Assembly (NCBI GenBank): GCA_033764955.1
Contig: JANRIL010000034.1
Span: 1-62,434 of the forward strand
Reading direction: 5' to 3'
Length of the DNA stretch: 62,434 nt
Source of the DNA: Cyanobacteriota bacterium
GTDB taxonomy: Bacteria; Cyanobacteriota; Cyanobacteriia; Thermostichales; Thermostichaceae
Shown here: positions 18,262 through 62,434 of the stretch, in pieces
How positions within the stretch are numbered: position 1 is the first letter of the stretch
How the letters are laid out: every line of letters begins with the position of its first letter
Position numbers and translations under genes: made by a program
The notes under the pieces: generated by a model
What the model was told of the DNA's origin: nothing
Seen by the model: the letters and a program-made list of their open reading frames with translations, nothing else
The model's database searches: none

Positions 18262-18275
18262 GTTACAAAAACTAC
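18262..18275 (+). promoter_or_regulatory. NtcA-like box GTT-N8-TAC
   Basis: GTTACAAAAACTAC, one mismatch to GTA-N8-TAC, upstream of the PirA-like gene. Confidence 0.3.
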
Positions 18276-18770: not shown

Positions 18771-19000
18771 TGTTCGGGGCAGGTTCCCCTACCTGGAAGG
18801 AAGTGACTGCTTGCCTTCCCCTGCATCTAGGCATCCCTAGCTTTGGCAAGGTTTCCTTAAGGGCAGAGTAAGATACAATTAAAAGTATAAAATCAGACAA
18901 GACTAAGAACGGGTTCAGGATGTGTCTACACTCTGAACCCTTTGCTGCTATTGTGTAGAAATGTACTGAGGAACTACCGGGCTAAGAGAGGATCGCCAGT

Positions 19001-19555: not shown

Positions 19556-19636
19556 TCTTTTGCTGCTTCTCCCGATCAGTGTTGCCCTCACCTGGATTAC
19601 CCCGTTCCCATTACACTTTCACGACTGGATGATGTC

Positions 19637-20362: not shown

Positions 20363-20419
20363 GGGTAACTTTGGAGTTAGAGGGGTTTTTTTACCTCTAT
20401 GCTTATCTTTAAGGAATAG

Positions 20420-20869
20420 TTGTTTTTCTTGGAAGCTATGTCTGCCCACCTTCACACTATGCTTGCCTCAGGTTTTTCGGGGACGGTGGGTCGAGTGTTT
20501 CTGCTTATCTGTGTGTTGTCGGCTTGCGGAAATCCTAATGTGCCTTTAACCCAACCCCCTCAAGATGCCTTTCGGGTCACCTCCCCTCGCCCCAGACGGG
20601 TGGATAACACTCCCACTTCCCGCTCGACTCCCCCCAAAGATGCGGAGCAAGATGCTCTGGCTCGTTTAACCGCTCAGTTTTTAGGGATTGATTGGCCTCG
20701 GCAAGCTGCCAGGACTACGGCTAGTGGTTCACTTGTAGAACTGACCGCCAGTTTTTTGCAGATTCGCTGGCCTTCTCCTGCTGCACCCAAGCGCCCTGCT
20801 GCCCTCAATCCGGAGACCCGTCCCCAGCAAGCTACTCCTAGGCAACAGCTAGAGCAACCCAACCCATGA
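20420..20869 (+). CDS. Hypothetical lipoprotein-like protein
   Basis: LSAC lipobox; internal duplicated motif; start uncertain. Confidence 0.55.
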   Translation: MFFLEAMSAHLHTMLASGFSGTVGRVFLLICVLSACGNPNVPLTQPPQDAFRVTSPRPRRVDNTPTSRSTPPKDAEQDALARLTAQFLGIDWPRQAARTTASGSLVELTASFLQIRWPSPAAPKRPAALNPETRPQQATPRQQLEQPNP

Positions 20870-20923
20870 AGGGGCTGACGAAAGACCCCTATGGCACCTA
20901 GACTTGCCTAGGCTTCCACTCCG

Positions 20924-32331: not shown

Positions 32332-32534
32332 AAATCTCTTGAGAAATCAGGCGACCCGGGCAATCGCGCCTGCCCAAAGCATCCCGTAGTGCTGCTACCT
32401 TCCGGTTCTGACACGGTTTGGGCGTTTAAGCCGCACGGACCCAGGTCTCTATGTAGCCTAACATTTTTTTGGGATAGGCAAGTTAGGCATACTATAAACC
32501 CTGAGGTTGCTTTGGTTTGTCGAGGGGTTGGCCT

Positions 32535-35713: not shown

Positions 35714-37813
35714 TTATAGGGATCCCATCTCCAAAGGCTCTGATCGAGGGGGATCAACCGATCCCTCTGAAGCCACAGGTTTCTGAGCAGGCAGAGTAAA
35801 GTTGAAGGTGGATTGGCCGCTGTTGTATCCCAACCGATAGCACCAGGCCAGCAGTCGATGCCAAAGACGGGGATAACGAGCCTCTAGCCAGGGACGCAGG
35901 GATCCCGCCAGCCTGGGTAACCAGCCTTCTAACAGGTAGGCCAAGAGTGCGGTCAGGGTAAAGCGAAAATAGGTGGGCAACCAAGCCGCTATGCCTCGCC
36001 AACCCACCGACTGCCAAATCCAAACCAAGATTTGTGGGTTTTGCTGAGCCGCCCGCCAAGCCATCCGGCTAAAGTCGCTCCAACTGGCGCGATCTTTAAT
36101 AAAGTTATCTACTGCTTCCGGCGACTCCTGCCCCAGGATGGCAAAGAAACTGTTGAGCATCGCGTTGATGCGAGCCGGAGGCATGGTTTGACCCGTGGGT
36201 ACCATCATGCCGCGGGAAAACAGCCAAGTGACCGCCGAGTTACCTTGATCCGCCCGCACCCGATGCAGATCGGCAGCCGTCAATAAGTCATGGCGGAGTG
36301 CTGTATCCAAGAGATCCACCAAGCGGGGAGAGTTGCGAACCAATGCCCCAAAACCCGTAAAGCTCAGGGGAGACTGCATTGCCGCCGCATCCCCCACCAG
36401 CCAAACCCGATCCATGCTGTGCTGTGGTTGAGCTGTAGGCAACCCAAAACGACCGGGAATGTAGCCAAAAGTAGCCTTTTTCCACTGCAATTGATCCAGA
36501 TCGCAACGGCGATATTCCGGCAAAATCGTGAAAAAATCCTCGTACATTTCCAGTAGGGATCCTGGATTTTGCGGATTCACTTGGTGATAGTGAAATAAAT
36601 AAAAGGTGAGTTCTTGCCCTGGCCCAGGAAAAAGCTCCCAAATCAACTGGCGACCCCGGCTAATATCTCCATGACTGGCCAAAATATCTCCGACGCTAGA
36701 GTCCCAAACCCCCGGCTCAAATCCCCCTTGAATAACCGCTCCCACCGTCGGACAAACGCTGTCAAAGGCTCGATAGTTGGCTAATTGCTGCGCCACTGGA
36801 GAAGCCGTGCCCATAGCATCTACCAATAGGCGAGAACGGAGATAAAAGGGAGGGGATCCTGCGGTGCGGGGCTGTAGTTGTAGGGTGATCTCGGCATCGC
36901 TCAGATAGGCTGATTGAAACTCTGTCTGATCAAAGATTTTGCCTCCAGCCGCCAGAATCTTTTCACCGCACAAATTGAGCAATTTTTCAGCATCAATGGC
37001 GATGTTGAGTACCGTAGGCGTATGTAACACGGGAGCCTTGACCGGACTATTGCCATCAAAAAACTTATTGAATCCATCCTGATATTCCCGCAAAATTAAG
37101 CTTTCCACCTGACTGCTTGTCAACAAGCCCATGCGAGTCAGGGTTGCGAGTTCCCGTCGAGAAATGTTCCATTCGCGGTTCATCCGACCAAAACTGAGGC
37201 GCTCCACTAGGGCGACTCGATAACCCAGTTGTGCCAGGGCAGCCGCTTGTAGGGATCCCAACGCTCCTCCCACCACCACCACATCCCAGAGGGGATCCTG
37301 AGGGTGAGCTGACTCAGGGGGGGGAGGCTGACGAAAAATGACGGGTTGACGGGGTAGGGATCCCGCTTGGGCTTCCGTGCGCCACCGCTGTTCCCACCAA
37401 TAGACCCGCTCCAGATCTCGCTCTCCATTGGGAATGCGGCGAAAGTAGCGCACCGTCAAGGGGTAGTGGGGTTCTAACGCCTCAAAAATGGAAGCAGCGG
37501 ATCCGTCAATGGCCGGTAAGGGCGGATAGGACGGGGGAAAGTGTTGCTGAATAGCCTGGGTAAACTGATCCAGCCATGCCTGTTGACCGGGAAAGGCTTG
37601 TTCTGACCATTGAAAAATCTTCAGATAAGTGGTGTTGAGAACACTCCAGGTAAAAACCACCAATACCTGAGTTTGCTCATGGTTTTGCCAACGACAGCCG
37701 GTGGGGGTGAGATGTTTTTCTGCCGACAAGAGAGGGATCGCCAGTTGATGCAACCACTGCACAACCTCACCCTGATGACGGGTGGGAATCTCCTGATAGC
37801 TCAGTTCCTTCAT
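35714..37813 (-). CDS. cruA: CruA-type lycopene cyclase (flavoprotein)
   Basis: VGGALG, GRMNREWNISR, GDAAAMQSPLSFTGFG; ~700 aa favours CruA over CruP. Confidence 0.8.
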   Translation of the reverse strand: MKELSYQEIPTRHQGEVVQWLHQLAIPLLSAEKHLTPTGCRWQNHEQTQVLVVFTWSVLNTTYLKIFQWSEQAFPGQQAWLDQFTQAIQQHFPPSYPPLPAIDGSAASIFEALEPHYPLTVRYFRRIPNGERDLERVYWWEQRWRTEAQAGSLPRQPVIFRQPPPPESAHPQDPLWDVVVVGGALGSLQAAALAQLGYRVALVERLSFGRMNREWNISRRELATLTRMGLLTSSQVESLILREYQDGFNKFFDGNSPVKAPVLHTPTVLNIAIDAEKLLNLCGEKILAAGGKIFDQTEFQSAYLSDAEITLQLQPRTAGSPPFYLRSRLLVDAMGTASPVAQQLANYRAFDSVCPTVGAVIQGGFEPGVWDSSVGDILASHGDISRGRQLIWELFPGPGQELTFYLFHYHQVNPQNPGSLLEMYEDFFTILPEYRRCDLDQLQWKKATFGYIPGRFGLPTAQPQHSMDRVWLVGDAAAMQSPLSFTGFGALVRNSPRLVDLLDTALRHDLLTAADLHRVRADQGNSAVTWLFSRGMMVPTGQTMPPARINAMLNSFFAILGQESPEAVDNFIKDRASWSDFSRMAWRAAQQNPQILVWIWQSVGWRGIAAWLPTYFRFTLTALLAYLLEGWLPRLAGSLRPWLEARYPRLWHRLLAWCYRLGYNSGQSTFNFTLPAQKPVASEGSVDPPRSEPLEMGSL

Positions 37814-47597: not shown

Positions 47598-47669
47598 GCG
47601 GGTGTAGCTCAGTGGTAGAGCTTCTCGTTGCCAACGAGAAGGTCGCGCGTTCGAATCGCGTCACCCGCT
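47598..47669 (+). tRNA. trnG: tRNA-Gly(GCC)
   Basis: GCGGGTGTAGCTCAGTGGTAGAGC...TTGCCAA...GTTCGAATC...ACCCGCT. Confidence 0.96.
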
Positions 47670-47777: not shown

Positions 47778-49331
47778 CTAGCTAAACTTAAATTTTTGAG
47801 CCGCAAACCAGCAGATTTTTAATAGTTTTAGACCATCTCGCACATGCTGGATATTCGATCTACCGTAGACACGCGGGTAATAGCGAACCGGAATGTCAAC
47901 AATTTTTAGATTGTTTTTGGTTGCCCCTAACAACAGATCAAAATCTCCAAAGGGATCAAAATCTCCAAAATAATGTTGGTTGGCCAAAATTTCTAGATAA
48001 TCGGAGCGCCTGAGAACCTTCGTTCCACATAGAGAATCTTTAATACGAATATTCAAAATATAGGACAGTAATGCGGCAAAAAATCGATTCCCCCAACGGT
48101 TGGCATCCGGCATAGAGGAGCGATTTAAGGGATAAATTAAGCGACAGCCATTGGCAAAATCACAGCGCCCTGTCGCCACTGCCCGAAAGAATTTCGGCAT
48201 ATCCTCTGCTTGAACGGTTAAATCAGCGTCTAGGATCATCAAAATGTCTCCGGTTGCCGCCGCAAACCCTTTGCGAACCGCATCGGCTTTCCCTTTGCCA
48301 TCCTGCTGCATGATTTTGATATCTCGTTGCGTTGCCCATTCCGCTTGAATTTTTTGGATCTCTAGCCAGGTATGATCCGTAGAGTGACCCTCCACAAAAA
48401 TAATCTCTGTATGGGATCCCATCAGGGGCAAGTTTTGAACGCAATTGAGGATGTTGCCCGCTTCGTTGCGAGCCGGGATGATCACTGAACAGGACAACGA
48501 TTCTGCCGGATTGATGGGATCCACTTTCAGATCCACAACAGGAGTAATTCCCTGCAAGGGCTGATGCCGCGTAGGAAAGGTAGAGGGTGGAATCTGTGGC
48601 CGGGAGACCATATATTCGGTTAGGCAAAGGTGATTGAACCCAGGCAGGGGCGCCAACCCCCGATTGATCAGACTGGCTAGCAGAGGAATCGACTTGGGCA
48701 TGAGCAGGCGTTTCCCTTGGCGAATCGTCTCAAATCCCGCCAGATCGAGGAGATTGGCAATATCCTGTTGGCTGAGCCAGTTAAGGGCAGGTAAAGGCAT
48801 CCGTTGTTTCAGCCAGGAGGCCATTTGCAAAAGAGGTTCCCAGAGAGGGTTATGGCTGGAGATGATCAGACGAGTTGCTGCACTGCACAGGGGTCGTACC
48901 CGTTCAAAAACTTGTTGAATATCGCTGACGCGGCTGAGGGTATTGGGGAAAATGATGTAGTCAAAGGGATCAAAACAGTCAGACTCTGCTCCCCAGCGGG
49001 GATCCCAAGTGAGGGCTTCCAGTTTTTGCACCTGCCAATTCAACCTAGGAAAATGCTGTTGGGCTTGCTCGATCACAGCAGGATCCGGATCGATGCCCAC
49101 ACCATAGGCAGGTTGCAAACCATCTAATAAATCTCCCGTGCCCACTCCAATCTGCAAAACCCGCTTTTGGCTGGGGATCAAGAACTGATGCAATTTCTCC
49201 AGATCCTGATGGTAGTAGAGATTTTTTTGCCGCCAAAAGGTTTGTGGGGCTTCTGGAGCAAGGGGGCTATCGGGTTGAGATAAGCGAGCCAAACCTTGAG
49301 CAGATTGATCCACTACCGCCTCCGACACCAC
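47778..49331 (-). CDS. Methyltransferase-like / GT2 glycosyltransferase fusion
   Basis: LQIGVGTG; SVIIPARNE, GKADAVRKG, ILDADL. Confidence 0.88.
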   Translation of the reverse strand: MVSEAVVDQSAQGLARLSQPDSPLAPEAPQTFWRQKNLYYHQDLEKLHQFLIPSQKRVLQIGVGTGDLLDGLQPAYGVGIDPDPAVIEQAQQHFPRLNWQVQKLEALTWDPRWGAESDCFDPFDYIIFPNTLSRVSDIQQVFERVRPLCSAATRLIISSHNPLWEPLLQMASWLKQRMPLPALNWLSQQDIANLLDLAGFETIRQGKRLLMPKSIPLLASLINRGLAPLPGFNHLCLTEYMVSRPQIPPSTFPTRHQPLQGITPVVDLKVDPINPAESLSCSVIIPARNEAGNILNCVQNLPLMGSHTEIIFVEGHSTDHTWLEIQKIQAEWATQRDIKIMQQDGKGKADAVRKGFAAATGDILMILDADLTVQAEDMPKFFRAVATGRCDFANGCRLIYPLNRSSMPDANRWGNRFFAALLSYILNIRIKDSLCGTKVLRRSDYLEILANQHYFGDFDPFGDFDLLLGATKNNLKIVDIPVRYYPRVYGRSNIQHVRDGLKLLKICWFAAQKFKFS

Positions 49332-51432: not shown

Positions 51433-52346
51433 TGCCGACGTTTCTTTTGGCGCTCATTCCGGCCACCTTGCGATCCACCACACCCCTCTTGTTGACCGCC
51501 TTGGGGGGGATGTTTGCCGAGCGGAGTGGGGTGGTCAATATAGCCCTGGAAGGGATCATGCTGTTTGGGGCGTTGGCAGCGGCTCTCACCACCCAACAAC
51601 TGGAAGCCCCCTATCTGGCGGTGGATGCCAATGCCCAGGTGTTTTGGATCCCGTGGCTGGGGTTGCTGGCGGGGGCGATTGGGGGAGCCATGATTGCGGC
51701 AGTCCATGCAGTGGTGAGCATTCACTACAAAGCGGATCAGATTGTCAGTGGGACAGCGATCAACCTATTGGCGTTTAGTGTGCCTTCCATCCTCTTGCAG
51801 TTTTTTTATAACAACACCACCAACTCTCAAGAAATCCTCAATCGCTTGCCCCTCTGGCTGGGGTTTAGCCCCCTGGTTTATCTGGCGTTTGGGCTAGTGC
51901 CCTTCAGTTGGTGGTTGCTGTTCAAAACCTCCTGGGGGCTGCGGTTGCGAGCGGTGGGAGAACATCCCCAGGCTGCCGATACGATGGGGGTGAATGTGGC
52001 ACGGGTGCGCTACGGAGCGGTGCTGCTGTCGGGGGTGTTGGCAGGGTTGGCGGGAGCCTACTTGTCCATTGGTTTTCTCAATCAATTTGTGCGGGGCATG
52101 TCAGCCGGAAAGGGCTTTATTGCTCTGGCGGCGATGATTTTTGGCAAGTGGCATCCCTTCGGCATTTTCGGGGCAACCCTGCTGTTTGGTCTGGCGGATG
52201 CCCTCGCCATTCAACTTCAGGGGGGAGCCATCCTGCCCGCAGTGCTCATTCAGGCGTTTCCGTTTGTCTTGACCATGCTGGTGTTGGCGGGGTTGATCAA
52301 TCGCGCCCGTCCGCCTGCCGCTCTCGGCAAACCCTACACCTCCTGA
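51432..52346 (+). CDS. ABC transporter permease (nucleoside/BMP type)
   Basis: ERSGVVNIALEG, LRAVGEHP, GFIALAAMIFGKW. Confidence 0.92.
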   Translation: MPTFLLALIPATLRSTTPLLLTALGGMFAERSGVVNIALEGIMLFGALAAALTTQQLEAPYLAVDANAQVFWIPWLGLLAGAIGGAMIAAVHAVVSIHYKADQIVSGTAINLLAFSVPSILLQFFYNNTTNSQEILNRLPLWLGFSPLVYLAFGLVPFSWWLLFKTSWGLRLRAVGEHPQAADTMGVNVARVRYGAVLLSGVLAGLAGAYLSIGFLNQFVRGMSAGKGFIALAAMIFGKWHPFGIFGATLLFGLADALAIQLQGGAILPAVLIQAFPFVLTMLVLAGLINRARPPAALGKPYTS

Positions 52347-52407
52347 TCCTCCTGGTTCTCCCCGAACACCCTAAACAATCGTCTCAATTTGACGGTGGCG
52401 ATAAAGT

Positions 52408-53688
52408 TTGATGGAGACTGATGAAGAACACCATTTCATTGAGAAGCAGCGTTGCATGGCATCTGGTCGCTTATCCAAATCCCCTCGACAAGCTCAGCCG
52501 ATTCGGTCTGGGCATTATCCCGCCAAAGAACTGTGCAGCGAGTGTGGCCTCTGCGACACCCAATATGTGCAATATGTCAAATCGGCCTGCGCCTTTATCA
52601 ACCCGCAAATCGAAGCCCTCGAACAGCAAACCCACGGCCAATCTCGTGCCATAGAGGACGCTACAAATTCTGCTACCCGTCAATCACCCACTGATACCGA
52701 CTACTTTGGCGTTCACCAAGCCATGTTGACCGCCCGCAAACGAGATCCCATCGCGGGTGCTCAATGGACGGGCATTGTCAGCACTATTGCCATCGCCGCC
52801 CTTGAGCAAGGCTGGGTGGAGGGGGTGATCTGCGTGCAAGCGGATGAGACGGATCGCTTCCAACCTCGTCCGGTGCTGGCTCGTACCGCCGCTGAGATTC
52901 TGGCGGCAAAGGTGAATAAACCCACCCTCTCCCCCAATCTCTCGGTGCTAGAAACCGTCAAACAGTCCGGTTGTCGGCGTTTGTTGGTAATTGGGGTGGG
53001 CTGCCAGATCCAAGCGCTGCGAGCGGTAGAATCACAGTTGGGACTGGAGAAACTCTATGTCTTAGGCACTCCCTGTGTGGATAATGTCAGTCGGGCGGGT
53101 CTGCAAAAGTTTTTGGAAGTGACCAGCCATTCTCCTGCAACCGTGGTCAGCTACGAGTTTATGCAGGATTTTCGCGTGCATTTTAAGCACGAAGATGGCT
53201 CGGTGGAAAAAGTCCCTTTCTTTGGCTTGAAAACCCCTCAACTCAAGGATGTCTTTGCCCCCTCCTGCCTGAGTTGTTTTGATTATGTGAATGGCTTGGC
53301 GGATTTGGTGGTGGGCTATATGGGATCCCCTTTTGGCTGGCAATGGCTGGTGGTTCGCAATGAACGGGGGCAAGCCCTGCTGGATTTGGTGAAGGATCAA
53401 CTGGATTGGCAACCCGTCATCTCCAAAGGCCAGCGACAAGCGGCGGTGCAGCAATCCATCAGTCTCTATGATCGAGCCGCTAGTCTCCCCATGTGGTTAG
53501 CGCGGTTGATGGCTAGTGTGATTGATAAAATCGGTCCGCAAGGGCTGGAGTATGCGCGATTTTCGATTGACTCCCATTTCACCCGCAACTATCTTTATGT
53601 ACGCCGTCATTATCCACAAAAATTGGCTCGCCAAGTGCCAGGGTTTGCTCAGCGGATTGTGGCTCAATATCAACTGCCTAACGACTAA
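52408..53688 (+). CDS. bciB: Ferredoxin-dependent 8-vinyl reductase (F420 hydrogenase beta family)
   Basis: CSECGLC, GAQWTGIV, GTPCVDN, CLSCFDYVN. Confidence 0.85.
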   Translation: MMETDEEHHFIEKQRCMASGRLSKSPRQAQPIRSGHYPAKELCSECGLCDTQYVQYVKSACAFINPQIEALEQQTHGQSRAIEDATNSATRQSPTDTDYFGVHQAMLTARKRDPIAGAQWTGIVSTIAIAALEQGWVEGVICVQADETDRFQPRPVLARTAAEILAAKVNKPTLSPNLSVLETVKQSGCRRLLVIGVGCQIQALRAVESQLGLEKLYVLGTPCVDNVSRAGLQKFLEVTSHSPATVVSYEFMQDFRVHFKHEDGSVEKVPFFGLKTPQLKDVFAPSCLSCFDYVNGLADLVVGYMGSPFGWQWLVVRNERGQALLDLVKDQLDWQPVISKGQRQAAVQQSISLYDRAASLPMWLARLMASVIDKIGPQGLEYARFSIDSHFTRNYLYVRRHYPQKLARQVPGFAQRIVAQYQLPND

Positions 53689-53704
53689 AGAAAAAGTTAG
53701 TTGC

Positions 53705-54760
53705 TTAAAGAGTATATCCATACGCCTGCATTTTCGGGCCAATGATAGCTAGCAATCGCTCTACATCATCTGAGCTGAGGCGTTTTTTCCAAGCATCATT
53801 ACGCCCATCCATCTTTAGTTTGCTGGCCTCCTTTTGGAAGATAGTTTCAATGTGGGGATCCCAAGTAAGCTGAGAGAAATTGGCAATTTTTTGTAGGTAA
53901 GCCAGCGGTTCAGTGACAAAATCTTCGTAGCGCAGTTCCAGATAGCGATCGGGGGAAATAACCTGCCGATCCCGTTCCACCGTTTCTACCACCTCTCGCC
54001 ATAGCATCCCAATCGAGCTGATGGGATCGCTTTCCCAAGCGGCTTCGATGTCTGCCCAGGCTTTCACCTTGACTCCACTTTTGGCATGACGGTGATCAGG
54101 GCCAAAAAACTGTTCGGCAATCTGACGCACCTTGAGTAGTGAACTACAAACCGCTCGACCATCGCGGATAATGTTGATGAAATAGGCATCGGGAAAGAGT
54201 TTATTAAGATAGCGAATTCTCACAGAGTTGTCAGGGTTTTTGTTGATAAATCGTTTGCCAGAAAAATACTTGAGATGCTTACGAATCGTATATTTCAGAT
54301 ATTTCTCCATGTCAGGATTATCATAGGTTTCATCCAGACAATAGTCTCCCCCTTCCGGGGCGCAAAATTCCCAAATGCGGATCCCTTCGTTGGGAGTGGC
54401 ATAGGTAAAGGGGATCCCATCCTGTAAAAAACGTTCCTGGACAACTTCATCTAGTTCTAACCATTTCCCAATGGTGTTAGATACTATCGGGATGCGGGGC
54501 AGAAGATTAGAGGCATTAGTGAGAAAAACCATCTCAGGGTGTTGAGCAATCGCCTCATATAAAACAGTCGTGCCGGAGCGATGGCAGCCCACAATAAAAA
54601 TGGGTTTGTTAATAGGAATATCCTCCAGGTTCTGGCTGTAGAATAATTGTTCAATGGCTGCCAGAGGCGCTTCCACAAGAGGTGGCAAGCTCATCGTGAC
54701 GTAGGATTTTTGCATCTCTTCCATCACTTTCTTCTTGACAAAATAAGGTAGAATGCCCAT
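53705..54760 (-). CDS. Sulfotransferase
   Basis: IVGCHRSGTT (5'-PSB), IIRDGRAVCSS (3'-PB), RYEDFV. Confidence 0.9.
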   Translation of the reverse strand: MGILPYFVKKKVMEEMQKSYVTMSLPPLVEAPLAAIEQLFYSQNLEDIPINKPIFIVGCHRSGTTVLYEAIAQHPEMVFLTNASNLLPRIPIVSNTIGKWLELDEVVQERFLQDGIPFTYATPNEGIRIWEFCAPEGGDYCLDETYDNPDMEKYLKYTIRKHLKYFSGKRFINKNPDNSVRIRYLNKLFPDAYFINIIRDGRAVCSSLLKVRQIAEQFFGPDHRHAKSGVKVKAWADIEAAWESDPISSIGMLWREVVETVERDRQVISPDRYLELRYEDFVTEPLAYLQKIANFSQLTWDPHIETIFQKEASKLKMDGRNDAWKKRLSSDDVERLLAIIGPKMQAYGYTL

Positions 54761-54835
54761 GGATAATCTTCTCCGGAAAGGTAAAGCTAGTCAGCTCAAA
54801 TTGCTAATCCAAAATATCCCTAACTATGAGTTCAA

Positions 54836-55906
54836 TCATGAAAGGGATCCCTTCACTAATGGATCCAGGTTATAGCCGTATTCCAGCATTTTGCTACCAA
54901 TGATATCTATCAACTGTTCGATTTCTGTGGAGGATAACTTTTGCTTCCAGGCATCGTTTCGCTGTCCTAAGCTCAGTTTTTGAGCAGCCTGTGTCATTTG
55001 AGTCTGGATATGTGGATCCCAAGCAAGCTGACAAAACTCAATCATCTTTTGTAGGGAGATCAGGGGATCCCCCACAACATCTTCATAGCGAACTTGCAAA
55101 TAGCGATGGGGATCGATAGCCTGTTGATCCCGCTCTAGAGTTTCGATGATTTCTCGCCACAATAGTCCAATCGCCACAACCGGTTTGGTCTGCCAGTAGG
55201 TTTGAATGTGATCCCAAGCTTTCACCTTGACTCCACTGGTAGCATGGCGATGTTCGGAGCCAAAAAACTGCGCTGCTGCCTGTCGAAACTTAAGGAGAGA
55301 GTGACAAACCGCCCGACCATCCCGAATGATATGGATGAAATAAGCATCCGGGAATAATTTGTTAAGATAGCGAATTCGGACGGAGTTGTCAGGATTTTTG
55401 TTGAGGAAGCGAGACTTTTTCCAGTGGTAGAGATGCTTTTGAATGGTGGTTTTAAGATAGTTATCCATTGCCGGATTATCATAGGTTTCATCCAAGCAAT
55501 AATCTCCGCCCACCGGAGCTAAATGTTCCCAGATACGGATCCCTTCACTGGGAGTGCTGTAGGAAATGGCCAGATCATCCTGAACAAACCGTTCAACGCT
55601 GGCGGAATCGGCTCCGACCACTCCCATCAGTTGATTGACTAAAATGGGAATACTGGGCAACATGCTGGAGGCATTGGTGAAATAGGCTAAATCGGGGTGT
55701 TGAGCCAGTGTTTCATAAAGAATTGTTGTGCCAGAACGATGACATCCCACAATAAAGATTGGTTTTTCAATGATAGTCTGGTGAGCTGGGTTTTCGTAAA
55801 GTATTTTCTCTAGCCATTCCACGGGCTTTTCAACAAAAGGAGGTAAGTGCAGATCCAGATAGTTTTTCTCCAAATGGATCAAGATTTTTTGTCTGAGGTT
55901 TGCCAT
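54836..55906 (-). CDS. Sulfotransferase, paralogue of the neighbouring gene
   Basis: IVGCHRSGTT, IIRDGRAVCHS, RYEDVV. Confidence 0.9.
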   Translation of the reverse strand: MANLRQKILIHLEKNYLDLHLPPFVEKPVEWLEKILYENPAHQTIIEKPIFIVGCHRSGTTILYETLAQHPDLAYFTNASSMLPSIPILVNQLMGVVGADSASVERFVQDDLAISYSTPSEGIRIWEHLAPVGGDYCLDETYDNPAMDNYLKTTIQKHLYHWKKSRFLNKNPDNSVRIRYLNKLFPDAYFIHIIRDGRAVCHSLLKFRQAAAQFFGSEHRHATSGVKVKAWDHIQTYWQTKPVVAIGLLWREIIETLERDQQAIDPHRYLQVRYEDVVGDPLISLQKMIEFCQLAWDPHIQTQMTQAAQKLSLGQRNDAWKQKLSSTEIEQLIDIIGSKMLEYGYNLDPLVKGSLS

Positions 55907-55915
55907 AGAGTTAAT

Positions 55916-57163
55916 TTAGATTGCTCCAAAGTCTTTATCCAGGGCTTGTCGTGCGCCTCGTTCTAACCAATCAGCCAGATCTACTCCGTGATCAGGGTGC
56001 AAATGATGCCAGTTTTCCCCCAATAAAGCATCCACATGATCGGTGAGGGCATGGGTGCGGGCGCGGTTCATATAACCGACAAAAGGCTCGATCAAATTGG
56101 TGTAGTAAATCTTATCCATCATTGAAAGTTTGGGTAAGATATCTTTCTTAAATTGATCAGGGGTTACTTGGGTGACTAGCTTAGCTTTATCCGGCTCTGT
56201 GGCCTCACATAACTCCCGAATAAAGCGAATGGGAATCGGTCGCCAACGATTCACCAAATGAAAGATTTGATAGCCCAAATCGGGGGTCATGCCGCCATCC
56301 CCAAATAGAACAGCTAGCTGCATCATGGCTTTGGTCACGCTATCAGCATCCGAAATATTCAAAACTGTGTTTTCATTAACCGGAATATATTTCAACGGAC
56401 TATTGATGGTAGGACCATTGGGAAGTTTGATTTTGGTGCGTCCTAGCATCGCTGCCATCAACTGATAGACAACCTTGAAATCATCGGTAATTAAACCAGG
56501 ATTATAGGCGCTCACCTCCTTAACAGGAATGTGGTGCATGATAATGTCAGGTCGAAAAATCAGCAGATTAAATGGCAGAGATCCCGACTCCACTAACGAT
56601 TGTAGATAGGTTTCTGCCTTCAATTTAGAGTAGCCATAGGCGTTATGGTGATCCATCTCCGCCAGATCATGAAAAGCCTCTGGAACGGTATATTCTCCAT
56701 CGGGGTCCCCAGCTTTTTCAAACACATAAAAGGTAGAGGTATGGCAGACCGTGCGGGGGATATGTTGGGTTGCTGCCGCCGTTTCGATAAAGTTGACGGT
56801 GTAGTCCAGATTGGTGACCAGGGAAGTTTTATCCCCTAGTTTTTTGAAGGTGACATCCCCCGCCATGTGCAGCCAGCAATCCGCTTGTAGGGATCCCATC
56901 GCCTCTGGGTTGCCCAGATAGGGAGAACTGAGTTCGCCGGGAATTACTGTCACCCGCTCCCGTTGGGAGGCTAAGCCAATCGAGTCCAAAACCTTGAGTA
57001 GGCGACGTTGGGCATCCGCCTGGGCTTTCTCCCCCTTTTCCTGGGGGCGAATCAACACCGCCACCCGTTCGTCTGGTAGTTCGGTCAAGAACCAAAAGAG
57101 TGTCCAGCGACCTAAGTATCCCGTCACTCCATCCATAAAAACAATATGTCGGCCTGCTGTCAT
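55916..57163 (-). CDS. Extended SDR, thioester-reductase/FAR-like
   Basis: DGVTGYLG, HMAGDV, YGYSK, FRPDII. Confidence 0.75.
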   Translation of the reverse strand: MTAGRHIVFMDGVTGYLGRWTLFWFLTELPDERVAVLIRPQEKGEKAQADAQRRLLKVLDSIGLASQRERVTVIPGELSSPYLGNPEAMGSLQADCWLHMAGDVTFKKLGDKTSLVTNLDYTVNFIETAAATQHIPRTVCHTSTFYVFEKAGDPDGEYTVPEAFHDLAEMDHHNAYGYSKLKAETYLQSLVESGSLPFNLLIFRPDIIMHHIPVKEVSAYNPGLITDDFKVVYQLMAAMLGRTKIKLPNGPTINSPLKYIPVNENTVLNISDADSVTKAMMQLAVLFGDGGMTPDLGYQIFHLVNRWRPIPIRFIRELCEATEPDKAKLVTQVTPDQFKKDILPKLSMMDKIYYTNLIEPFVGYMNRARTHALTDHVDALLGENWHHLHPDHGVDLADWLERGARQALDKDFGAI

Positions 57164-57274
57164 GAGCGTTTCCCTTGGGGATCCTGCGATAAAGTCGTGG
57201 ACTGGAGCAGCCTAACCTGAATGGCGGGAAATTTTCCAGAGCCATGTCTAGAGAAAATTCCCAGAGCCAATTGC

Positions 57275-60200
57275 CTAGAGATAGGTGAGCAATAGCTCCC
57301 GTGCTGCCGGACGCGCTAACTCCGATAGCCCCGCCAGGCGGATCCCCGCTTGACTGAGATGATCCGCCCGCGTCAGGAAGGCGGCTCCGTGCAGGAGCGC
57401 CAACCCCATCAGCACAACATCCCGATTCTCTAGCGGCTCTAACCAGGATCCCGCCACCCAGTTGTTGAATAATCCCATCGCCGGACCACACCAAATTTGG
57501 TAGTCTGACTTGCGATCCGCCTGCCCCGACTGTGCCCAGCGGGAGCTTAACCCCAAATAAGCGCGGAAAGTCAGGGCCATTTGGAACTTGGGATCCCGTT
57601 CGGCTTTTTCCAAATTTTTCGGATCCCGTTGCCGCCAGTATTGGGCGGTGCTCGCCCAAACCTCCGCGAGGGGCTGCCGGAATAGATCCCGCTCCAGCTT
57701 GGCTCGCTCTTCGGCGGGGATCGCCTCTAGGCCGTCGTAGGTTTTGTAGATGTCGTAGAGTTTTTTGGCGCGTTGGGCATAGAAACTGCCCCCTTTGAGA
57801 ATCTGCACCTGTACTCCCATCTCAAACATATCCGCCGCCGGAGCCATTACTACATCGGTCATGCTGGCTTTGGCAAGCATTTCTTTCGCCAAGTGAGAGG
57901 TGCCCGCTTGCCAACTGCTTTGATTCATCGATCCGGTCAGCAGATAGTCGGCTCCCAAAGCCAAGGCTGCCCGTGCCGAGAGGGGATCCCCAATACTGCC
58001 TGCGGATCCCACCCGCAGGTCGATGCCTAGGGTCTGATACTGGTGACGGGCGGCCACCTCATCTCGCAGGCGAATCATTTGGGGCAACAACACCGAGAGG
58101 GGGCGGCGATCGGTGTGGCCGCCGCTATCGGCTTCGGCGGTGATATCTTGCGCCACCGGCAGGAGAGCCGCTAGTTCCGCCTCTTCTATGGTCAATTTGC
58201 CCTGAGCCACCAGTTGTTTGAGCATGGCTGCTGGGGGAGGAGCCATAAACTGGCTAGCCACCTCTAGAGAACTGACTTTGGCAAACACTCGGTTGGGAGT
58301 GACAATTCGTCCATCCGCGAGGCGCTGCATCCCTGTGGCCCGATAGCGAACCACACTGGGCATCAGGCGCAAATAAGCGGAGGCAGAGACTTTGTGAACC
58401 CCGTGCTGAAGATAGAGATCGACGGTGCGCTCCTCCATGCCCGACTCAATCGGATTATGCAGCAGATTAAAGCCAAAGGCAGCGTGGGGATGATCGATGA
58501 GTTGCTGTTTTACCTCCAGGATGGCTTTTTCCACCCGTCCCAGATCCAAGCCGCCAGAGCCAAAAAAGCCCAACATGCCTGCTTTAGCCATCGCCACCAC
58601 TATATCCACCGAGCCGATGCCACCCGCCATCGCTCCGGCGATGTAGTTAAATTTCACCCCATGATCCTGCCGGAAACTAGGGGATCCCAAATCCTGGGGA
58701 CGGATGGCTGGAACCCAACCCCGCAGGCATCCCATGCTGAGGATCTCAGGCGTGGTCTGAGCCGTCACAGGAATCACCGTCGGGGTATCCTCACGAGTGA
58801 GCACCGCTAACGGCAGATCCAACGCCGACAGACAGGTGGCGAGATCGCCCGTGGAGGGGAAATGAGTGGGGGTGGGCTGGGGAGATCCCACCACCGCTAG
58901 GGGTTGCTCTAGCTTATGGAGGGCGGATCCCAGGTTAACCACCTCTGGAGCTTGCCCCGTTGGCAGGGAATCCTGGCTGGACTGAGGCTGGGCTGAGGAG
59001 GCCAGACGATCCTGATAAAACTCCCGATAGATGCGCGTGGAGCGCAGTTCCCGGCGAAAGGCTTCGCTGCGATAAAACTCAGGATCATAGGCTTCCACAA
59101 TCACATGGAAATTGGTGCCCCCAAAGCCAAAGGAATTGACTCCCGCCCGCCGCGGTGTGACCTCCGTATGTTCCCACTCGCAGGTGGTGGTGTTGATAAT
59201 AAAGGGAGCCGCTTGCTGATCAATCTTGGGGTTAGGGGTCTCAAAGTTGAGGGTGGGGGGAACTTTCCCCTGCTGCACACTCAAAATCGCTTTAATCAAT
59301 CCGGCCACTCCGGCGGAGGTTTTGAGGTGTCCTACCATTGATTTGACAGATCCCAGATAAACCGGACGCTGGCGGGCTGACTCACCAAAGATTTCCGCTA
59401 ATGAGGCAAACTCGGTAGCATCCCCCAGGGGAGTAGAGGTGCCGTGGGCTTCCACCAAGCCAATGGTGGCCGGATCCACACCCGCATCGGCGTAGGCATG
59501 GCGCATGGCTGCCACCTGCCCTTCTTGGCTGGGGGCGGTGATCCCGCGTCCGCGTCCATCAGAGGAACTGCCGGTGCCGCGAATCACGGCATGAATCTTG
59601 TCTCCCGCCGCCTCGGCATCCCGCAACCGCTTCAGCAGCAGAATACCGGATCCCTCTCCCATGACAAAACCATCCGCTTTGGCATCAAAGGGATAGCTAC
59701 CTTTGGCGCTGAGGGCATAGGTTTTGCAGAAACCAACATAGGATCCGGCTGACATGGCACTATCGGATCCCCCCATCACCACCATGTCCACTTCCCCCAT
59801 CCGCAGGCTTTTGACCGCGTGATCGAGGGCGGCTAAAGAGGCAGCACAGGCGGCATCCAAAACGACATTTCCCCCTTGCAAATCAAAGCAGTAGGCCACC
59901 CGTCCCGCCACGATATTGGGCAAGCCCCCCGGCATAGAGTCCTCAGAGGAGGCCGGGATCCGTTTATTGATGTGCTGCCGAGCCTGTTCAATCATCTGAC
60001 TCTGGATGTCAGGGGGCAGGGATTGAAACACGGCTGAGGCTTGAAACCCTTCCGCTACCTCGTCAAAAAACACCCGCGGAGCTGCTAAGTCGTGAAACTC
60101 AGGGATCGAGGTGCCAATGATCACCCGCACCCTTGTCCGATCAAACTCCTTGTCGTAATAGCCACTGTCTTTGAGGGCTTCGCGGGTAGCCAAGAGCGCC

Positions 60201-62434
60201 ATTTTTTGGCTGCGATCCATTTGTAGAGCGGTCTTGGGGGTGATGCGAAACTCAATGGGCTTGAACTCAAAGTTGGGCACAAAAGCACCAATTTTGGAGT
60301 AGGTTTTGTCGGGAGCCTTAAAGTCAGGGTTGTAAAAGGTTTGCAGTTTCCAACGGAAAGAGGCGTCCTGGGGGATCTCGCGGATGGCACTGTGACCCGC
60401 CAAAAGATTCTGCCAAAACTGCTGGATGTTGACGGCATCCGGCAAAATTCCCCCCATGCCAATCACTGCAATCGGGTCGAGGAGCGCCGGACGTTCAGAC
60501 AGCCAATCGAAGTTAGGGATCCCCTGGGGATGGGTACCGGCAGACAGGTCAGTAGGTTGTGCCTGTTGGGGAATCGCTACCGAGACAGAGATCGCTGCTG
60601 AGTGGATAGGAGCGGATGCAGGAGTGGGAGTGGTTTTCAGGCTGATGGGGGGTTCGGGAGAAGCAACGGAAGGAGGATGTGTTGGCTGAGACGGGGATCC
60701 GGTGGGAATAGGTATAACCCATTGCTCTGGGGCAGGGGGGAGGGGAGCCTGAATCGGGAAGCCCAGCACATGCAGTTGAGCCAACGCTTCTAGGAAGCAA
60801 AGCCGACCACTGCGCTTGGGACGGTTGGCACCCAACAGCAGGATCTGGTTGGTATCCACAGTCTCTTTGGCTAAGCGGGCAAGGCGATCGGTGGGGCCGA
60901 TATCCAGAAGCAGGCCGCAGCCCAGCGATTGCAGCCGTTGCAGTTGGGCAACGTGGTTGACAGGGGCAATAAAGGCACAATCCAACAAAGCACGCACTTG
61001 CGCCGAAGCGAGACTTGACCAGGGCAGGAAATCACCGGTCAGACCGGAAATCACCGGAATCCGTGGCAGTTGAAATTCGCTCTGTTGTAAGGCTTGTCGA
61101 TAGTATTGGTGGGCGGTCGCCAGAATCGGGGAGTGATAGGCCGTCTCTACCTGCAACGGATGGGGTTGGATCCCTTCTTTTTGGGCGAGTGCCATCAACT
61201 GCTTGATGTCCTCCTGTTCCCCAGAAACCACCAACTGTTGAGTAGAGTTGCGGTTAGAAATCACCACCCGTCCCTGCATCGCCTGCACCAAACGGCGGGT
61301 AATGGCTTCTGGCCCGATCAACGCCGCCATGGATCCCTTGGGATAGGCGGGCAAATCTTTGAAGGGAGCTGTGGTCAGACGAATTAACTCCGTCAGGTCA
61401 AAGGCTCCCGCGATGTGGCAGGCGGTTAATTCCCCCACGCTGTGTCCAGCCACCCAAGCTGGCTGTAGCCCAAAATGCTCAAACAGGCGTGCCATCGCCG
61501 TGGAAATCGTCACGGTAGCAGGCCGTTGCCAGAGGGGATCCGTGGTGGCAGTGAAGGTTAGCTCCTGATCCACAATCTGCTGAAAAGCCTTTTGAGCGGT
61601 CTGCAACACCTGCTGCACAACTGGCAATCCCTGCCATTCTTCCAGAAGACCAGGATAGATGGATCCCGAACCGGGGAATAACCAGGCCATCGCGGGCGGT
61701 GTGGGCTGAAGGGATCCCCACCAGATCCCCTGTTCAGGGCGGGTTTGTCCGGCGGATTGATTCCACTGGTTCGTGATCTGGCTAGCAAGGGTTGGGGAAA
61801 GGCGATTCACTAAGACTGCGAAGGGTTGCCCCGATGTTTGGCTGGGGAGGGAGATCACCCACTCCGCACTCTGCTGGATGGCTTCCACCAAGCCCTCTAG
61901 AGGTTGTGGCTGATCGGGGGATCCCTGACCCAGGATCAATACCCAGTCTTCGGCAAGAGGGGCAAGGGGGTGAGCAGATTGGGGAGGAGGAGCCGGAGTT
62001 GTCACCACTGAGGGGCGTAGGCTGGCTGCTAATTCCTCGACAGTCCAATCTTGATGACCATTGGGAGTAACTCCCAGTTGCCCCAAAAGTGTTTGCACTT
62101 CAGTACGAGTCAATCCCAAATCCTTGATGAGGGTGAGGTGGGGTTGCAACCACTGGGGTTCGTAGTTGCGGATCTGGGCAAGCGCCTGGGTGACCTGGGT
62201 GAGTTCGGGGCTGAAGGTTAGCTTGGCCTGAGACAGGGATCCCTGAGGGGTCGGCAGAGGAGCATCGGAAGCAGGATCCGTTGGAGCCATCCCCAACTGA
62301 GCCAGCTTTTCGGCAGCGTCGGCAGGTAAGTTATCAGCATTTTGGATCCCTGCCATCAACTCTGCCATCATGCCCGTGGGGGCTTCTCCGGTGGCCGTAT
62401 TTTGGCGAGTTTGTGCCAGTTCAATCAACTTGCC
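57275..62434 (-). CDS. PUFA-synthase/Hgl-like PKS: degenerate ACP-like, AT, KS, PfaD-type enoyl reductase; 5' end beyond the window
   Basis: AT FPGSG/GHSVG/AYHS; KS DAACAAS/EAHGTST/GHLK; PfaD AGAMAGG/EADSGGHTD/YQIWCGP; frame open to 62434. Confidence 0.9.
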   Translation of the reverse strand, partial: GKLIELAQTRQNTATGEAPTGMMAELMAGIQNADNLPADAAEKLAQLGMAPTDPASDAPLPTPQGSLSQAKLTFSPELTQVTQALAQIRNYEPQWLQPHLTLIKDLGLTRTEVQTLLGQLGVTPNGHQDWTVEELAASLRPSVVTTPAPPPQSAHPLAPLAEDWVLILGQGSPDQPQPLEGLVEAIQQSAEWVISLPSQTSGQPFAVLVNRLSPTLASQITNQWNQSAGQTRPEQGIWWGSLQPTPPAMAWLFPGSGSIYPGLLEEWQGLPVVQQVLQTAQKAFQQIVDQELTFTATTDPLWQRPATVTISTAMARLFEHFGLQPAWVAGHSVGELTACHIAGAFDLTELIRLTTAPFKDLPAYPKGSMAALIGPEAITRRLVQAMQGRVVISNRNSTQQLVVSGEQEDIKQLMALAQKEGIQPHPLQVETAYHSPILATAHQYYRQALQQSEFQLPRIPVISGLTGDFLPWSSLASAQVRALLDCAFIAPVNHVAQLQRLQSLGCGLLLDIGPTDRLARLAKETVDTNQILLLGANRPKRSGRLCFLEALAQLHVLGFPIQAPLPPAPEQWVIPIPTGSPSQPTHPPSVASPEPPISLKTTPTPASAPIHSAAISVSVAIPQQAQPTDLSAGTHPQGIPNFDWLSERPALLDPIAVIGMGGILPDAVNIQQFWQNLLAGHSAIREIPQDASFRWKLQTFYNPDFKAPDKTYSKIGAFVPNFEFKPIEFRITPKTALQMDRSQKMALLATREALKDSGYYDKEFDRTRVRVIIGTSIPEFHDLAAPRVFFDEVAEGFQASAVFQSLPPDIQSQMIEQARQHINKRIPASSEDSMPGGLPNIVAGRVAYCFDLQGGNVVLDAACAASLAALDHAVKSLRMGEVDMVVMGGSDSAMSAGSYVGFCKTYALSAKGSYPFDAKADGFVMGEGSGILLLKRLRDAEAAGDKIHAVIRGTGSSSDGRGRGITAPSQEGQVAAMRHAYADAGVDPATIGLVEAHGTSTPLGDATEFASLAEIFGESARQRPVYLGSVKSMVGHLKTSAGVAGLIKAILSVQQGKVPPTLNFETPNPKIDQQAAPFIINTTTCEWEHTEVTPRRAGVNSFGFGGTNFHVIVEAYDPEFYRSEAFRRELRSTRIYREFYQDRLASSAQPQSSQDSLPTGQAPEVVNLGSALHKLEQPLAVVGSPQPTPTHFPSTGDLATCLSALDLPLAVLTREDTPTVIPVTAQTTPEILSMGCLRGWVPAIRPQDLGSPSFRQDHGVKFNYIAGAMAGGIGSVDIVVAMAKAGMLGFFGSGGLDLGRVEKAILEVKQQLIDHPHAAFGFNLLHNPIESGMEERTVDLYLQHGVHKVSASAYLRLMPSVVRYRATGMQRLADGRIVTPNRVFAKVSSLEVASQFMAPPPAAMLKQLVAQGKLTIEEAELAALLPVAQDITAEADSGGHTDRRPLSVLLPQMIRLRDEVAARHQYQTLGIDLRVGSAGSIGDPLSARAALALGADYLLTGSMNQSSWQAGTSHLAKEMLAKASMTDVVMAPAADMFEMGVQVQILKGGSFYAQRAKKLYDIYKTYDGLEAIPAEERAKLERDLFRQPLAEVWASTAQYWRQRDPKNLEKAERDPKFQMALTFRAYLGLSSRWAQSGQADRKSDYQIWCGPAMGLFNNWVAGSWLEPLENRDVVLMGLALLHGAAFLTRADHLSQAGIRLAGLSELARPAARELLLTYL

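Follow-up and report, generated by a model that had tools for sequence, protein, structure and literature searches.

Gene arrangement in the window

The stretch of cyanobacterial DNA analysed here (62,434 nucleotides, hereafter the window) ends with four genes that are all encoded on the minus strand in one direction, in the order synthase, reductase, sulfotransferase 1 (ST1) and sulfotransferase 2 (ST2). The first of them (positions 57275-62434) specifies the C-terminal 1719 aa of a predicted Pfa-like synthase subunit and is 5'-truncated, its reading frame being open at the window end. It is followed by the genes for a stand-alone, thioester-reductase-like extended SDR (415 aa, 55916-57163), ST1 (356 aa, 54836-55906) and ST2 (351 aa, 53705-54760). 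In the list of open reading frames the intergenic gaps amount to 111, 9 and 75 bp, and the gene order, orientation and spacing given in an earlier note on this DNA were thus reproduced from the coordinates. The cluster boundary lies at position 53705, and the next gene, which is FrhB-like and situated on the plus strand (52408-53688), converges on ST2 with 16 bp between the stop codons. Matches to promoter and terminator consensus sequences did not exceed the shuffle expectation in the scanned region and none fell into the three gaps. The four genes are best explained as the 3' part of an operon. By its gene content the window is cyanobacterial, and no relative of its PurH exceeds 68% identity. 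Neither PAPS-supply genes nor a PPTase were found in the window, and no hgd/dev exporter is visible within it. Its sole cytochrome P450 gene (45240-46649, plus strand) resides 7 kb from the cluster on the opposite strand, among housekeeping genes; it is a candidate accessory hydroxylase of uncertain membership.

The synthase

Domains of the window proteins were called by Pfam and NCBIfam profile searches. The synthase part comprises a post-ACP linker, an AT domain with a GHSVG motif (residues 249-528, 60851-61690, minus strand; PF00698 and a fabD-like match to TIGR00128), a KS domain (residues 653-1118, 59081-60478, minus strand) and a PfaD-type enoyl reductase (ER) domain (residues 1245-1690, 57365-58702, minus strand). 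The ER scores 603 bits with TIGR02814, whose cut-off is 449, and its counterpart in L004, one of nine loci with a related synthase (L001-L009) that stem from a single scan of 185,579 species genomes, reaches 594 bits. The PfaA model is matched piecewise, with 493 bits in the window and 782 bits in L004, both below the full-length threshold of 1010. Alignment of the window protein begins at residue 733 of the 2494-aa L004 protein, just past the last ACP. Judged from the relatives, the N-terminal ~730-780 aa with the first KS and the ACPs, as well as a whole upstream KR-DH-DH gene, lie beyond the window. The complete synthase in the relatives consists of two subunits, KR-DH-DH and KS-ACP(1-5)-AT-KS-ER, an arrangement that, going by its domains, is a rearranged PUFA-synthase layout. 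The number of LGVDS-type ACPs is one in L003 and L006, two in L002 and L004 and five in L005, such that tandem ACPs occur in orthologues while the window covers the post-ACP linker only.

Both KS domains keep the active-site Cys/His/His. In the window KS these residues lie in the motifs DAACAAS, EAHGTST and KSMVGH, and it is therefore not a chain-length factor. A KS-CLF pair as in the PfaA/PfaC organisation was considered and rejected: an obvious CLF is lacking and the triad is present in both KS. In agreement with the earlier note, a thioesterase domain was reported neither in the window synthase nor in its full-length relatives, including those of L002 and L004. The same note had called the synthase Pfa/Hgl-like. 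The first half of this label holds, given the PfaD-family ER above cut-off, the tandem ACPs of the relatives and the piecewise PfaA match; the locus is not an Hgl island.

The reductase and the sulfotransferases

The reductase, simply termed an SDR before, can be placed more closely. It matches PF07993 (NAD_binding_4, the "male sterility"/thioester reductase type) with 73 bits (cut-off 20), far above the 26.8 bits obtained with Pfam Epimerase, whereas the NCBIfam thioester-reductase domain TIGR01746 is not reached (45 bits, cut-off 213). The Rossmann motif TGYLGR and the catalytic YGYSK are present, and T14, G15, G18, Y176, S179 and K180 are invariant in 30 aligned family members. Searching the PDB with the single sequence gave no match. 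The best PDB matches of the family profile are the R domains of carboxylic acid reductase (3.5e-5), of Mycobacterium tuberculosis Nrp (2.8e-4) and of MxaA, that is, CAR, NRPS and PKS R domains. Fold matches are weak evidence in this case because the AF2 model is poor (pLDDT 56.7). The family is very narrow, with four of 1.84 billion representatives found at E<=1e-10, and more distant library matches sit at the C-termini of proteins of 1200-2800 aa. Pfam detects no PP-binding domain, i.e. the protein resembles a TR without a fused ACP. Its sequence thus marks it as a divergent branch of thioester-reductase-type enzymes, and we propose that it acts as a chain-release enzyme.

ST1 and ST2 are paralogues with 59% identity and were correctly described as stand-alone and intact: they are separate ORFs that score 117 and 112 bits with PF13469 (Sulfotransfer_3, cut-off 27) and share the PAPS-binding motifs GCHRSGTT, NKNP and IIRDGRAVCHS, which align to the TPST motifs. 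Residues G54, R57, S58, G59, K170, R195, D196, R198 and S203 are invariant in 64 aligned family members. The AF2 model of ST1 (pLDDT 93.5) shows a confident sulfotransferase fold with matches to PDB sulfotransferases. Its closest fold neighbours are mycobacterial Stf9 (2z6v) and Stf1 (2zq5), with identities of only 15-16% and a TM of about 0.5, together with TPSTs, which are also the best PDB sequence matches. These come ahead of the ST domains of CurM and Ols (4gbm and 4gox, TM 0.40-0.43, the latter also a weak sequence match); LGS1, which represents sulfate-assisted chemistry, is likewise among the fold matches. The automatic JGI name for relatives is Stf3, a lipid-alcohol sulfotransferase. 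Both proteins are predicted PAPS-dependent sulfotransferases of the Sulfotransfer_3/TPST-like type. In the phylogenetic tree, ST2 falls together with the second STs of L004 and L008 (SH-aLRT 87), while the orthology group of ST1 is not resolved.

Related loci

Co-conservation had been set beforehand as a test of the proposed gene set, and the synthase-reductase-ST order was found again in L001, L004, L007 and L008, mostly in Gloeobacterales MAGs. A reductase gene directly follows the synthase gene in six of the nine loci (L001, L002, L004, L007, L008 and L009) and in these it was seen at that place only. The three others (L003, L005 and L006) have neither a reductase gene within 10 kb nor an ST gene near the synthase, which thus does not need them. 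Five loci have sequence past the reductase, and in four of these a homologous ST follows: it is cut in L001, L004 and L008 contain two STs in the order of the window, and in L007 a single ST follows, another being encoded far off on the opposite strand. At protein identities of 48-72%, several MAGs repeat the order and the spacing, and a conserved arrangement of this kind is not a chance juxtaposition. For 11 of 30 reductase clusters the longest contig equals in length that of an ST cluster, which, by this criterion only, points to co-occurrence on one contig.

The fifth locus, L002 from an Elainellaceae MAG, contains the same synthase and reductase followed by three GT1 glycosyltransferase genes in place of the STs. 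This is what would be expected if the product of the reductase is an alcohol acceptor, and the analogy drawn in the earlier note, reductive release followed by decoration with a head group, gains support from it.

Export genes flank the synthase in L002 (HlyD and AcrB) and in L004 (ABC exporter). Just past the STs, L004 and L008 feature genes for Rieske, P450, fatty acid desaturase-like, AurF-like and weakly condensation-like proteins; these extras are not adjacent to the window cluster. The window P450 is 41% identical to the P450 encoded 3 kb past the STs in L004 and 48% identical to one next to a homologous ST on a Stanieria plasmid. On this plasmid the ST gene is located between the genes for a weakly AurF-like (dimetal-carboxylate) protein and the P450, and genes annotated as a DevBCA-type exporter come after this group.

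Proposed pathway and alternatives

Taken together, the cluster most likely makes a sulfated long-chain lipid by iterative synthesis, reductive release to an alcohol and one or two O-sulfations, a reading that we hold with moderate confidence. The chemical steps, the chain length, the number and position of the sulfates and the localisation are all what we infer. A two-subunit, PUFA-synthase-like iterative synthase would use malonyl units to assemble, on its ACPs, an acyl chain that is long and for the most part reduced; its KR-DH-DH subunit would be encoded upstream, outside the window, and the last 1719 aa of its KS-ACPn-AT-KS-ER subunit inside. Instead of a thioesterase, the stand-alone SDR would use NAD(P)H to free the chain, the outcome being an aldehyde or, if a second reduction follows, a primary alcohol. 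The two PAPS-dependent STs, probably paralogues of long standing that have stayed neighbours, could next place sulfate on the oxygen of the terminal alcohol, of a second hydroxyl or of both. Such a second hydroxyl may be a beta-hydroxyl that was not removed (giving a 1,3-diol) or may come from a P450. We expect the product to be an alkyl sulfate or an alkanediol disulfate bound for the cell envelope, and it is conceivable that it is "(poly)hydroxy" and "di-sulfated" as suggested earlier.

In a different course, release ends at the aldehyde or goes another way and the STs act on hydroxyls in the middle of the chain of a hydroxy fatty aldehyde or acid, or of a scaffold that has been processed further; additional tailoring enzymes (P450, acyltransferase, desaturase-like, dimetal) would be encoded elsewhere. 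The genes past the STs in L004 and L008 and the relatedness of the window P450 to ST-linked P450s are in line with this, but in the window such extra genes are not adjacent and the exchange for GT1s in L002 speaks for a simple alcohol as acceptor, so that we consider this course rather unlikely. It is unlikely, too, that one or both STs add sulfate only as a leaving group, as in CurM/Ols, and that the pathway ends in an alkene, an ether or a cyclised lipid without sulfate. While the CurM/Ols domains and LGS1 are indeed among the fold matches, Stf9, Stf1 and the TPSTs are nearer neighbours, a TE is lacking, the synthase contains no ST, and a pair of paralogous STs is kept across lineages. Moreover, the STs occupy the position of the glycosyltransferases of relatives, enzymes that add permanent head groups.

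Relatives of the reductase carry the JGI label "nucleoside-diphosphate-sugar epimerase" and Pfam Epimerase is matched, and together with the TPSTs as best PDB sequence matches of the STs this could mean that the reductase is an SDR of the sugar-nucleotide epimerase/dehydratase type, that the STs modify carbohydrate or protein and that the link to the synthase is merely positional. The bit scores (73 for NAD_binding_4 versus 27), the CAR, NRPS and PKS R domains as top profile matches, the invariable position right after the synthase in six loci and a cluster without sugar-nucleotide genes render this quite improbable. That unrelated genes are neighbours by chance is highly improbable and already disfavoured: order and spacing repeat across MAGs at the identities given above.

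We tentatively suggest that early-branching and other poorly sampled cyanobacteria might form long-chain (di)sulfates of alkanols or alkanediols for their envelope or membranes, using a rearranged, compact synthase of the Pfa type, an orphan thioester reductase and two STs dedicated to lipids. Head groups would then be exchangeable, with sulfate in clusters of the Gloeobacterales type and hexose in L002, and the pathway would be related to that of heterocyst glycolipids as its sister or its forerunner. If so, this would be a genetically defined bacterial route to the kind of alkanediol-disulfate scaffold that has so far been described, by chemistry, in chrysophyte chlorosulfolipids, for which our literature search found no description of the genes. 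Some lineages are reported to lack SQDG, and there the sulfated lipids might act as anionic lipids.

Comparison with known systems

A literature search retrieved no paper describing the synthase-reductase-sulfotransferase cluster type or a Pfa-like synthase linked to sulfotransferases. To our knowledge, Pfa-like "secondary lipid" synthases have few known products (heterocyst glycolipids, phenolic lipids, zeamines and PUFAs). If our reading is true, the cluster would stand for a new class of sulfated lipids in bacteria and offer biocatalysts in the form of two sulfotransferases for lipid alcohols and a distinct reductase for chain release, and the exchange of STs for glycosyltransferases would be a natural experiment on the diversification of cyanobacterial envelope lipids before heterocysts arose.

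The hgl pathway of Nostocales is alike: its Pfa-related synthase produces a long chain, reductive release yields the alcohol, and decoration follows. Both systems occur in cyanobacteria including early-branching lineages, and the glycosyltransferases of L002 reside at the exact position of the STs. According to the main text of PMC11804610, "hgl-like islands" occur in non-heterocytous cyanobacteria and are defined by at least seven hgl homologues per island; "sulfotransferase" and "sulfat*" are absent from that text. In contrast to the multi-gene hgl set, our full-length relatives have two synthase genes with rearranged domain order and one reductase, which in the window lacks a fused ACP; a putative sulfate takes the place of the hexose, with STs at the glycosyltransferase position in the window and GT1s in L002 only. 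The two-gene rearranged synthase and the reductase without fused ACP rule out an Hgl island.

With PfaABCD and the "secondary lipid synthases" (Shulse & Allen 2011, PMC3098273) our cluster shares, going by the sections of that work on synthase types, the PfaD-family ER, tandem ACPs, a KR-DH part matching the C-terminal part of PfaA and the iterative logic. The arrangement KS-ACPn-AT-KS-ER plus KR-DH-DH differs from loci of other phyla, which keep ER, KS-AT-ACP-KR and KS-CLF, and no description of it was found among the text on Types A-T in that paper. Stand-alone TRs serve Pfa-like synthases in the routes to zeamine and fabclavine (passages in PMC13291983), which likewise combine a PUFA-like synthase with a separate TR for reductive chain release (PMC5811116 and passages in PMC13291983). 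These routes also include aminotransferases and NRPS-PKS parts leading to polyamino alcohols, whereas the two STs are the sole tailoring genes here.

In CurM and olefin synthase, too, a cyanobacterial PKS-derived lipid is the substrate of a PAPS-dependent ST of related fold. That ST is a built-in part of the megasynthase (ACP-ST-TE) and coupled to a TE for decarboxylative elimination, while the window has two free-standing STs, a reductase and no TE. An ST-TE off-loading module was rejected since the STs are separate ORFs and a TE domain is found neither in the window nor in L002 and L004.

Finally, the lipid STs of mycobacteria resemble ours in structure, Stf9 and Stf1 being the best matches, although sequence identity is low and substrate and pathway context differ; JGI's automatic naming of relatives points to Stf3. 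Stf3 works with Cyp128 in the sulfomenaquinone pathway of mycobacteria, and a P450-ST pairing is also present on the Stanieria plasmid and in L004.

Gene arrangement and conservation of the cluster

Four co-oriented open reading frames make up the cluster on the minus strand of the window: a Pfa-like synthase gene (57275-62434, 1719 aa without a stop codon before the window end), a reductase gene (55916-57163, 415 aa, NAD_binding_4 SDR of the 'male sterility'/thioester reductase type) and two sulfotransferase (ST) genes of the Sulfotransfer_3 type, ST1 (54836-55906, 356 aa) and ST2 (53705-54760, 351 aa). The gaps of 111, 9 and 75 bp stated in the earlier note are matched exactly by the coordinates. 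The cluster ends at position 53705, because the neighboring FrhB-like gene (52408-53688) converges with ST2, leaving 16 bp between the two stop codons. A promoter and terminator scan of positions 52300-58000 returned matches only within coding regions and at or below the number expected from shuffled sequence; it supports operon boundaries neither way. The 111 bp separating the synthase gene from the reductase gene harbor two imperfect 17-nt direct repeats (57228-57269, minus strand; TGGCTCTGGGAATTTTC and TGGCTCTGGAAAATTTC) that are identical in 15 of 17 positions and lie 25 nt apart from start to start. This repeat is not conserved, as the corresponding gap is almost nil in relatives (6 nt in locus L004).

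When 185,579 species genomes were scanned for the synthase fragment, 80 loci were retrieved, nine of which (L001-L009) reside on cyanobacterial or same-type unclassified MAG contigs and encode proteins with 57-76% identity to the window fragment. The reductase gene immediately follows the synthase gene in six of the nine (L001, L002, L004, L007, L008 and L009); it was not found within 10 kb of the synthase in L003, L005 and L006, where housekeeping genes are present instead. Sequence past the reductase is available for five loci (L001, L002, L004, L007 and L008), and in four of these a homologous ST gene comes next, separated from the reductase gene by 9 bp or overlapping it. Both ST genes are present in L004 and L008, two Gloeobacterales MAGs, in the same order as in the window, while L001 holds the first part of one ST before the contig ends and L007 contains one ST gene followed by an SDR gene, with a distant ST on the opposite strand. 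The co-conservation on which the earlier note had made its proposal depend is thus borne out for synthase, reductase and sulfotransferases. The fifth locus, L002 from an Elainellaceae MAG, encodes the same two-subunit synthase and an orthologous reductase (63% identity), followed by three GT1 (UDPGT-type) glycosyltransferases (GTs; 16638-21836) in place of the STs, and constitutes a natural head-group swap. In a wider protein collection, the longest contig of 11 of the 30 reductase clusters equals in length that of an ST cluster, and at least six more ST pairs have equal-length contigs; co-occurrence on contigs is suggested here by equal lengths only. L001 and L009 are two contigs of one MAG (Gloeobacterales ES-bin-141), each with a synthase end followed by a reductase gene, which could reflect two gene copies or strain heterogeneity of the bin.

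GC content declines along the operon from 57.7% in the synthase to 48.3% in the reductase and 45.2% and 45.7% in the STs, the window average being 51.7%. Recent transfer of the low-GC ST genes was considered as an explanation and rejected: the same gradient occurs in L004 and L008 and is therefore a property of the genes.

A rearranged Pfa-like synthase

The window synthase consists of an acyltransferase (residues 249-528), a ketosynthase (653-1118) and a PfaD-family enoyl reductase domain (1245-1690), the latter scoring 603 bits with TIGR02814 against a curated cut-off of 449. Full-length relatives (L002 to L006) comprise two subunits, one of about 1150 aa with KR-DH-DH architecture and one of 2300-2600 aa arranged as KS-ACP(1-5)-AT-KS-ER. 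Upon alignment, the window synthase starts at the equivalent of residue 733 of the L004 protein, directly past the last ACP, such that some 730-780 aa of the large subunit and the entire KR-DH-DH gene must lie beyond the window end. The Cys/His/His triad is intact in both ketosynthases, and neither is thus an obvious chain-length factor (CLF). Against the PfaA model, the KR-DH part aligns with the C-terminal region and the large subunit aligns in five pieces, scoring 782 bits where the cut-off is 1010; the PfaD match of the large subunit exceeds its cut-off. The enzyme is Pfa-like in parts but differs from Pfa synthases in falling short of a full-length PfaA and in lacking an obvious CLF.

Loci from other phyla were initially taken for members of the same 'AT-KS-ER' family. 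This assignment was rejected since re-mapping revealed the ordinary pfaD-pfaA-pfaC order, tblastn pieces having been merged; at E ≤ 1e-5, no reductase or ST homologue occurs in these loci. The cyanobacterial arrangement accordingly represents a distinct, rearranged Pfa-like layout, of which we found no description in the available portion of the text of Shulse and Allen (2011; PMC3098273).

The designation Pfa/Hgl-like in the earlier note holds for the Pfa-like parts and for the proposed logic shared with the heterocyst glycolipid (hgl) pathway, i.e., chain synthesis, reductive release and head-group decoration. It does not extend to an hgl island, from which the cluster differs in gene set, in a reductase without fused ACP and in the absence of a GT gene from the window assigned to the cluster. 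Islands of the hgl-like type with unknown product have been reported for non-heterocytous cyanobacteria including Gloeobacter in PMC11804610, whose main text does not contain the words 'sulfotransferase' and 'sulfat'. In the open-access literature searched, no work came to light that describes a Pfa-like synthase combined with a thioester reductase (TR) and sulfotransferases, or the genes behind alkanediol disulfates or chlorosulfolipids.

Reductase and sulfotransferases

The reductase carries the motifs TGYLGR (Rossmann) and YGYSK (catalytic Tyr/Lys), both invariant across its family. This family is strikingly narrow: an indexed search recovered 30 clusters, none below 48% identity, and an exhaustive HMMER search of 1.84 billion representatives retrieved 83 proteins at E ≤ 0.001, only four at E ≤ 1e-10 and three at E ≤ 1e-30, the next relative sharing 31% identity. 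Several distant matches are C-termini of proteins of 1200-2800 aa, resembling the position of a terminal R domain. As a single sequence the reductase had no match in the PDB. A profile of 30 family members matched carboxylic acid reductase (CAR) R domains (3.5e-5), the Mycobacterium tuberculosis Nrp R domain (2.8e-4) and, weakly, the MxaA R domain. The best fold matches of an AF2 model built from a 6-sequence alignment are the MxaA R domain, a Streptomyces coelicolor PKS thioreductase and CAR R domains; with a pLDDT of 56.7 the model is poor and these matches may serve as weak corroboration only. With the NCBIfam thioester-reductase model the protein scores 45 bits (cut-off 213), and we therefore name it TR-like and not a curated member.

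ST1 and ST2 are 59% identical and contain GCHRSGTT (5'-phosphosulfate loop), NKNP with an invariant Lys, and IIRDGRAV..S (3'-phosphate motif), which align with the corresponding motifs of tyrosylprotein sulfotransferases. A confident AF2 model of ST1 (pLDDT 93.5) resembles Mycobacterium avium Stf9, M. tuberculosis Stf1 and TPST1/2 most closely, followed by the Ols and CurM ST domains (TM about 0.4-0.57, identity 15-19%). With about 65 clusters at ≥41% identity, the family is a tight clade, beyond which there is a sharp fall to shorter STs of about 274 aa. Many clade members bear the automatic JGI label 'omega-hydroxy-beta-dihydromenaquinone-9 sulfotransferase' (Stf3), a lipid-alcohol sulfotransferase. 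In a quick maximum likelihood tree, ST2 groups with its second-position counterparts from L004 and L008 (SH-aLRT 87) and ST1 falls among first-position STs without resolved support; the duplication is accordingly older than these lineages, which have retained both copies.

Candidate tailoring and export genes

Just past both STs, L004 (17827-24280) and L008 (8784-12026) contain candidate tailoring genes for a Rieske protein, two P450s and a fatty acid desaturase-like protein (79% identical between the two loci), together with a 461-aa protein that has an HxxxD motif and matches Condensation weakly; L008 also encodes an AurF-like protein. No such extra genes adjoin the cluster in the window. 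In L002 and L004, the synthase has exporter genes at its flank (HlyD and AcrB upstream of it in L002, ABC type in L004).

A Stanieria sp. NIES-3757 plasmid encodes a further ST, 50-51% identical to the window STs. Here (L081, AP017376.1, 13578-20710), genes for a hypothetical 451-aa protein, the ST, a P450 and annotated DevB-, DevC- and DevA-family ABC exporter subunits form a row without an adjacent synthase gene. The 451-aa protein matches AurF/dimetal-carboxylate proteins weakly, below the Pfam cut-off, and the row may serve to tailor and export a halogenated sulfolipid. It is probably the one 'P450/sulfotransferase' CylC-halogenase cluster listed for 'Stanieria sp.' in PMC8406957. The window P450 (45240-46649) is 48% identical to the Stanieria plasmid P450 and 41% to an L004 P450 situated 3 kb past the STs, and may on the strength of these identities belong to the pathway. 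It lies 7 kb from the cluster on the opposite strand, with thiD, a methyltransferase-GT2 fusion gene, two permease genes and the FrhB-like gene in between. The fusion gene (47778-49331, minus strand) encodes a SAM-methyltransferase joined to a GT2 glycosyltransferase (517 aa). A 699-aa protein (35714-37813, minus strand; sub-threshold FAD_binding_3 match only) is 53% identical to a 710-aa protein (12143-14275) about 3.5 kb from the L008 ST pair, and the two are possibly remnants of a shared neighborhood.

Proposed pathway and alternatives

Taken together, we lean toward iterative acyl synthesis followed by reductive release, O-sulfation and export, a reading to which we assign somewhat better than even chances and in which all chemical steps are inferred. 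The Pfa-like synthase would provide a long acyl-ACP, from which the free-standing TR-like reductase would release the chain reductively. The resulting alcohol, possibly a diol with a retained beta-hydroxyl or one added by a P450, would then be O-sulfated by one or both STs and the sulfated amphiphile exported to the envelope. The most telling piece of evidence for this reading is L002, in which the genes after those of the same synthase and reductase encode glycosyltransferases, a parallel to heterocyst glycolipid biosynthesis. Free-standing TRs operating with Pfa-like synthases are described for zeamine and fabclavine in PMC13291983. It is also conceivable, albeit unlikely, that mid-chain hydroxyls are sulfated on an aldehyde or acid scaffold. 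Slightly less credence is given to cryptic sulfation, in which sulfate is installed for elimination. The cluster is not an ST-TE module of the CurM/Ols kind, and no thioesterase domain is reported in the window synthase or in the proteins of its full-length relatives, in agreement with the original reading.

Action of the STs on an unrelated sugar or protein acceptor appears improbable. Chance adjacency of the genes, finally, is given hardly any weight next to their recurrence in the related loci.

Remaining window

Outside the cluster, the window has the content of an ordinary cyanobacterial chromosome, with genes for PheS, PurH, LeuB, GAF/phytochrome kinases, DUF3110 and DUF4351 proteins. 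The best PurH match in 5.8 billion protein clusters is no more than 68% identical, indicating that the organism stems from a poorly sampled lineage. A type I restriction-modification system on the minus strand (2531-12996; HsdR 2531-5911, HsdS 9074-10240, HsdM 11395-12996) is interrupted by genes for a Fic/DOC protein (5908-7095), an AAA_21/AbiEii-like ATPase (7760-9073) and an HNH endonuclease (10252-10719); together with a GC dip to 43-44% at 8-12 kb this suggests a defence island. Rfam matches at gathering level identify two tRNA genes and a small SRP RNA at 47598-47669 (plus strand), 14493-14564 and 32350-32447 (both minus strand).
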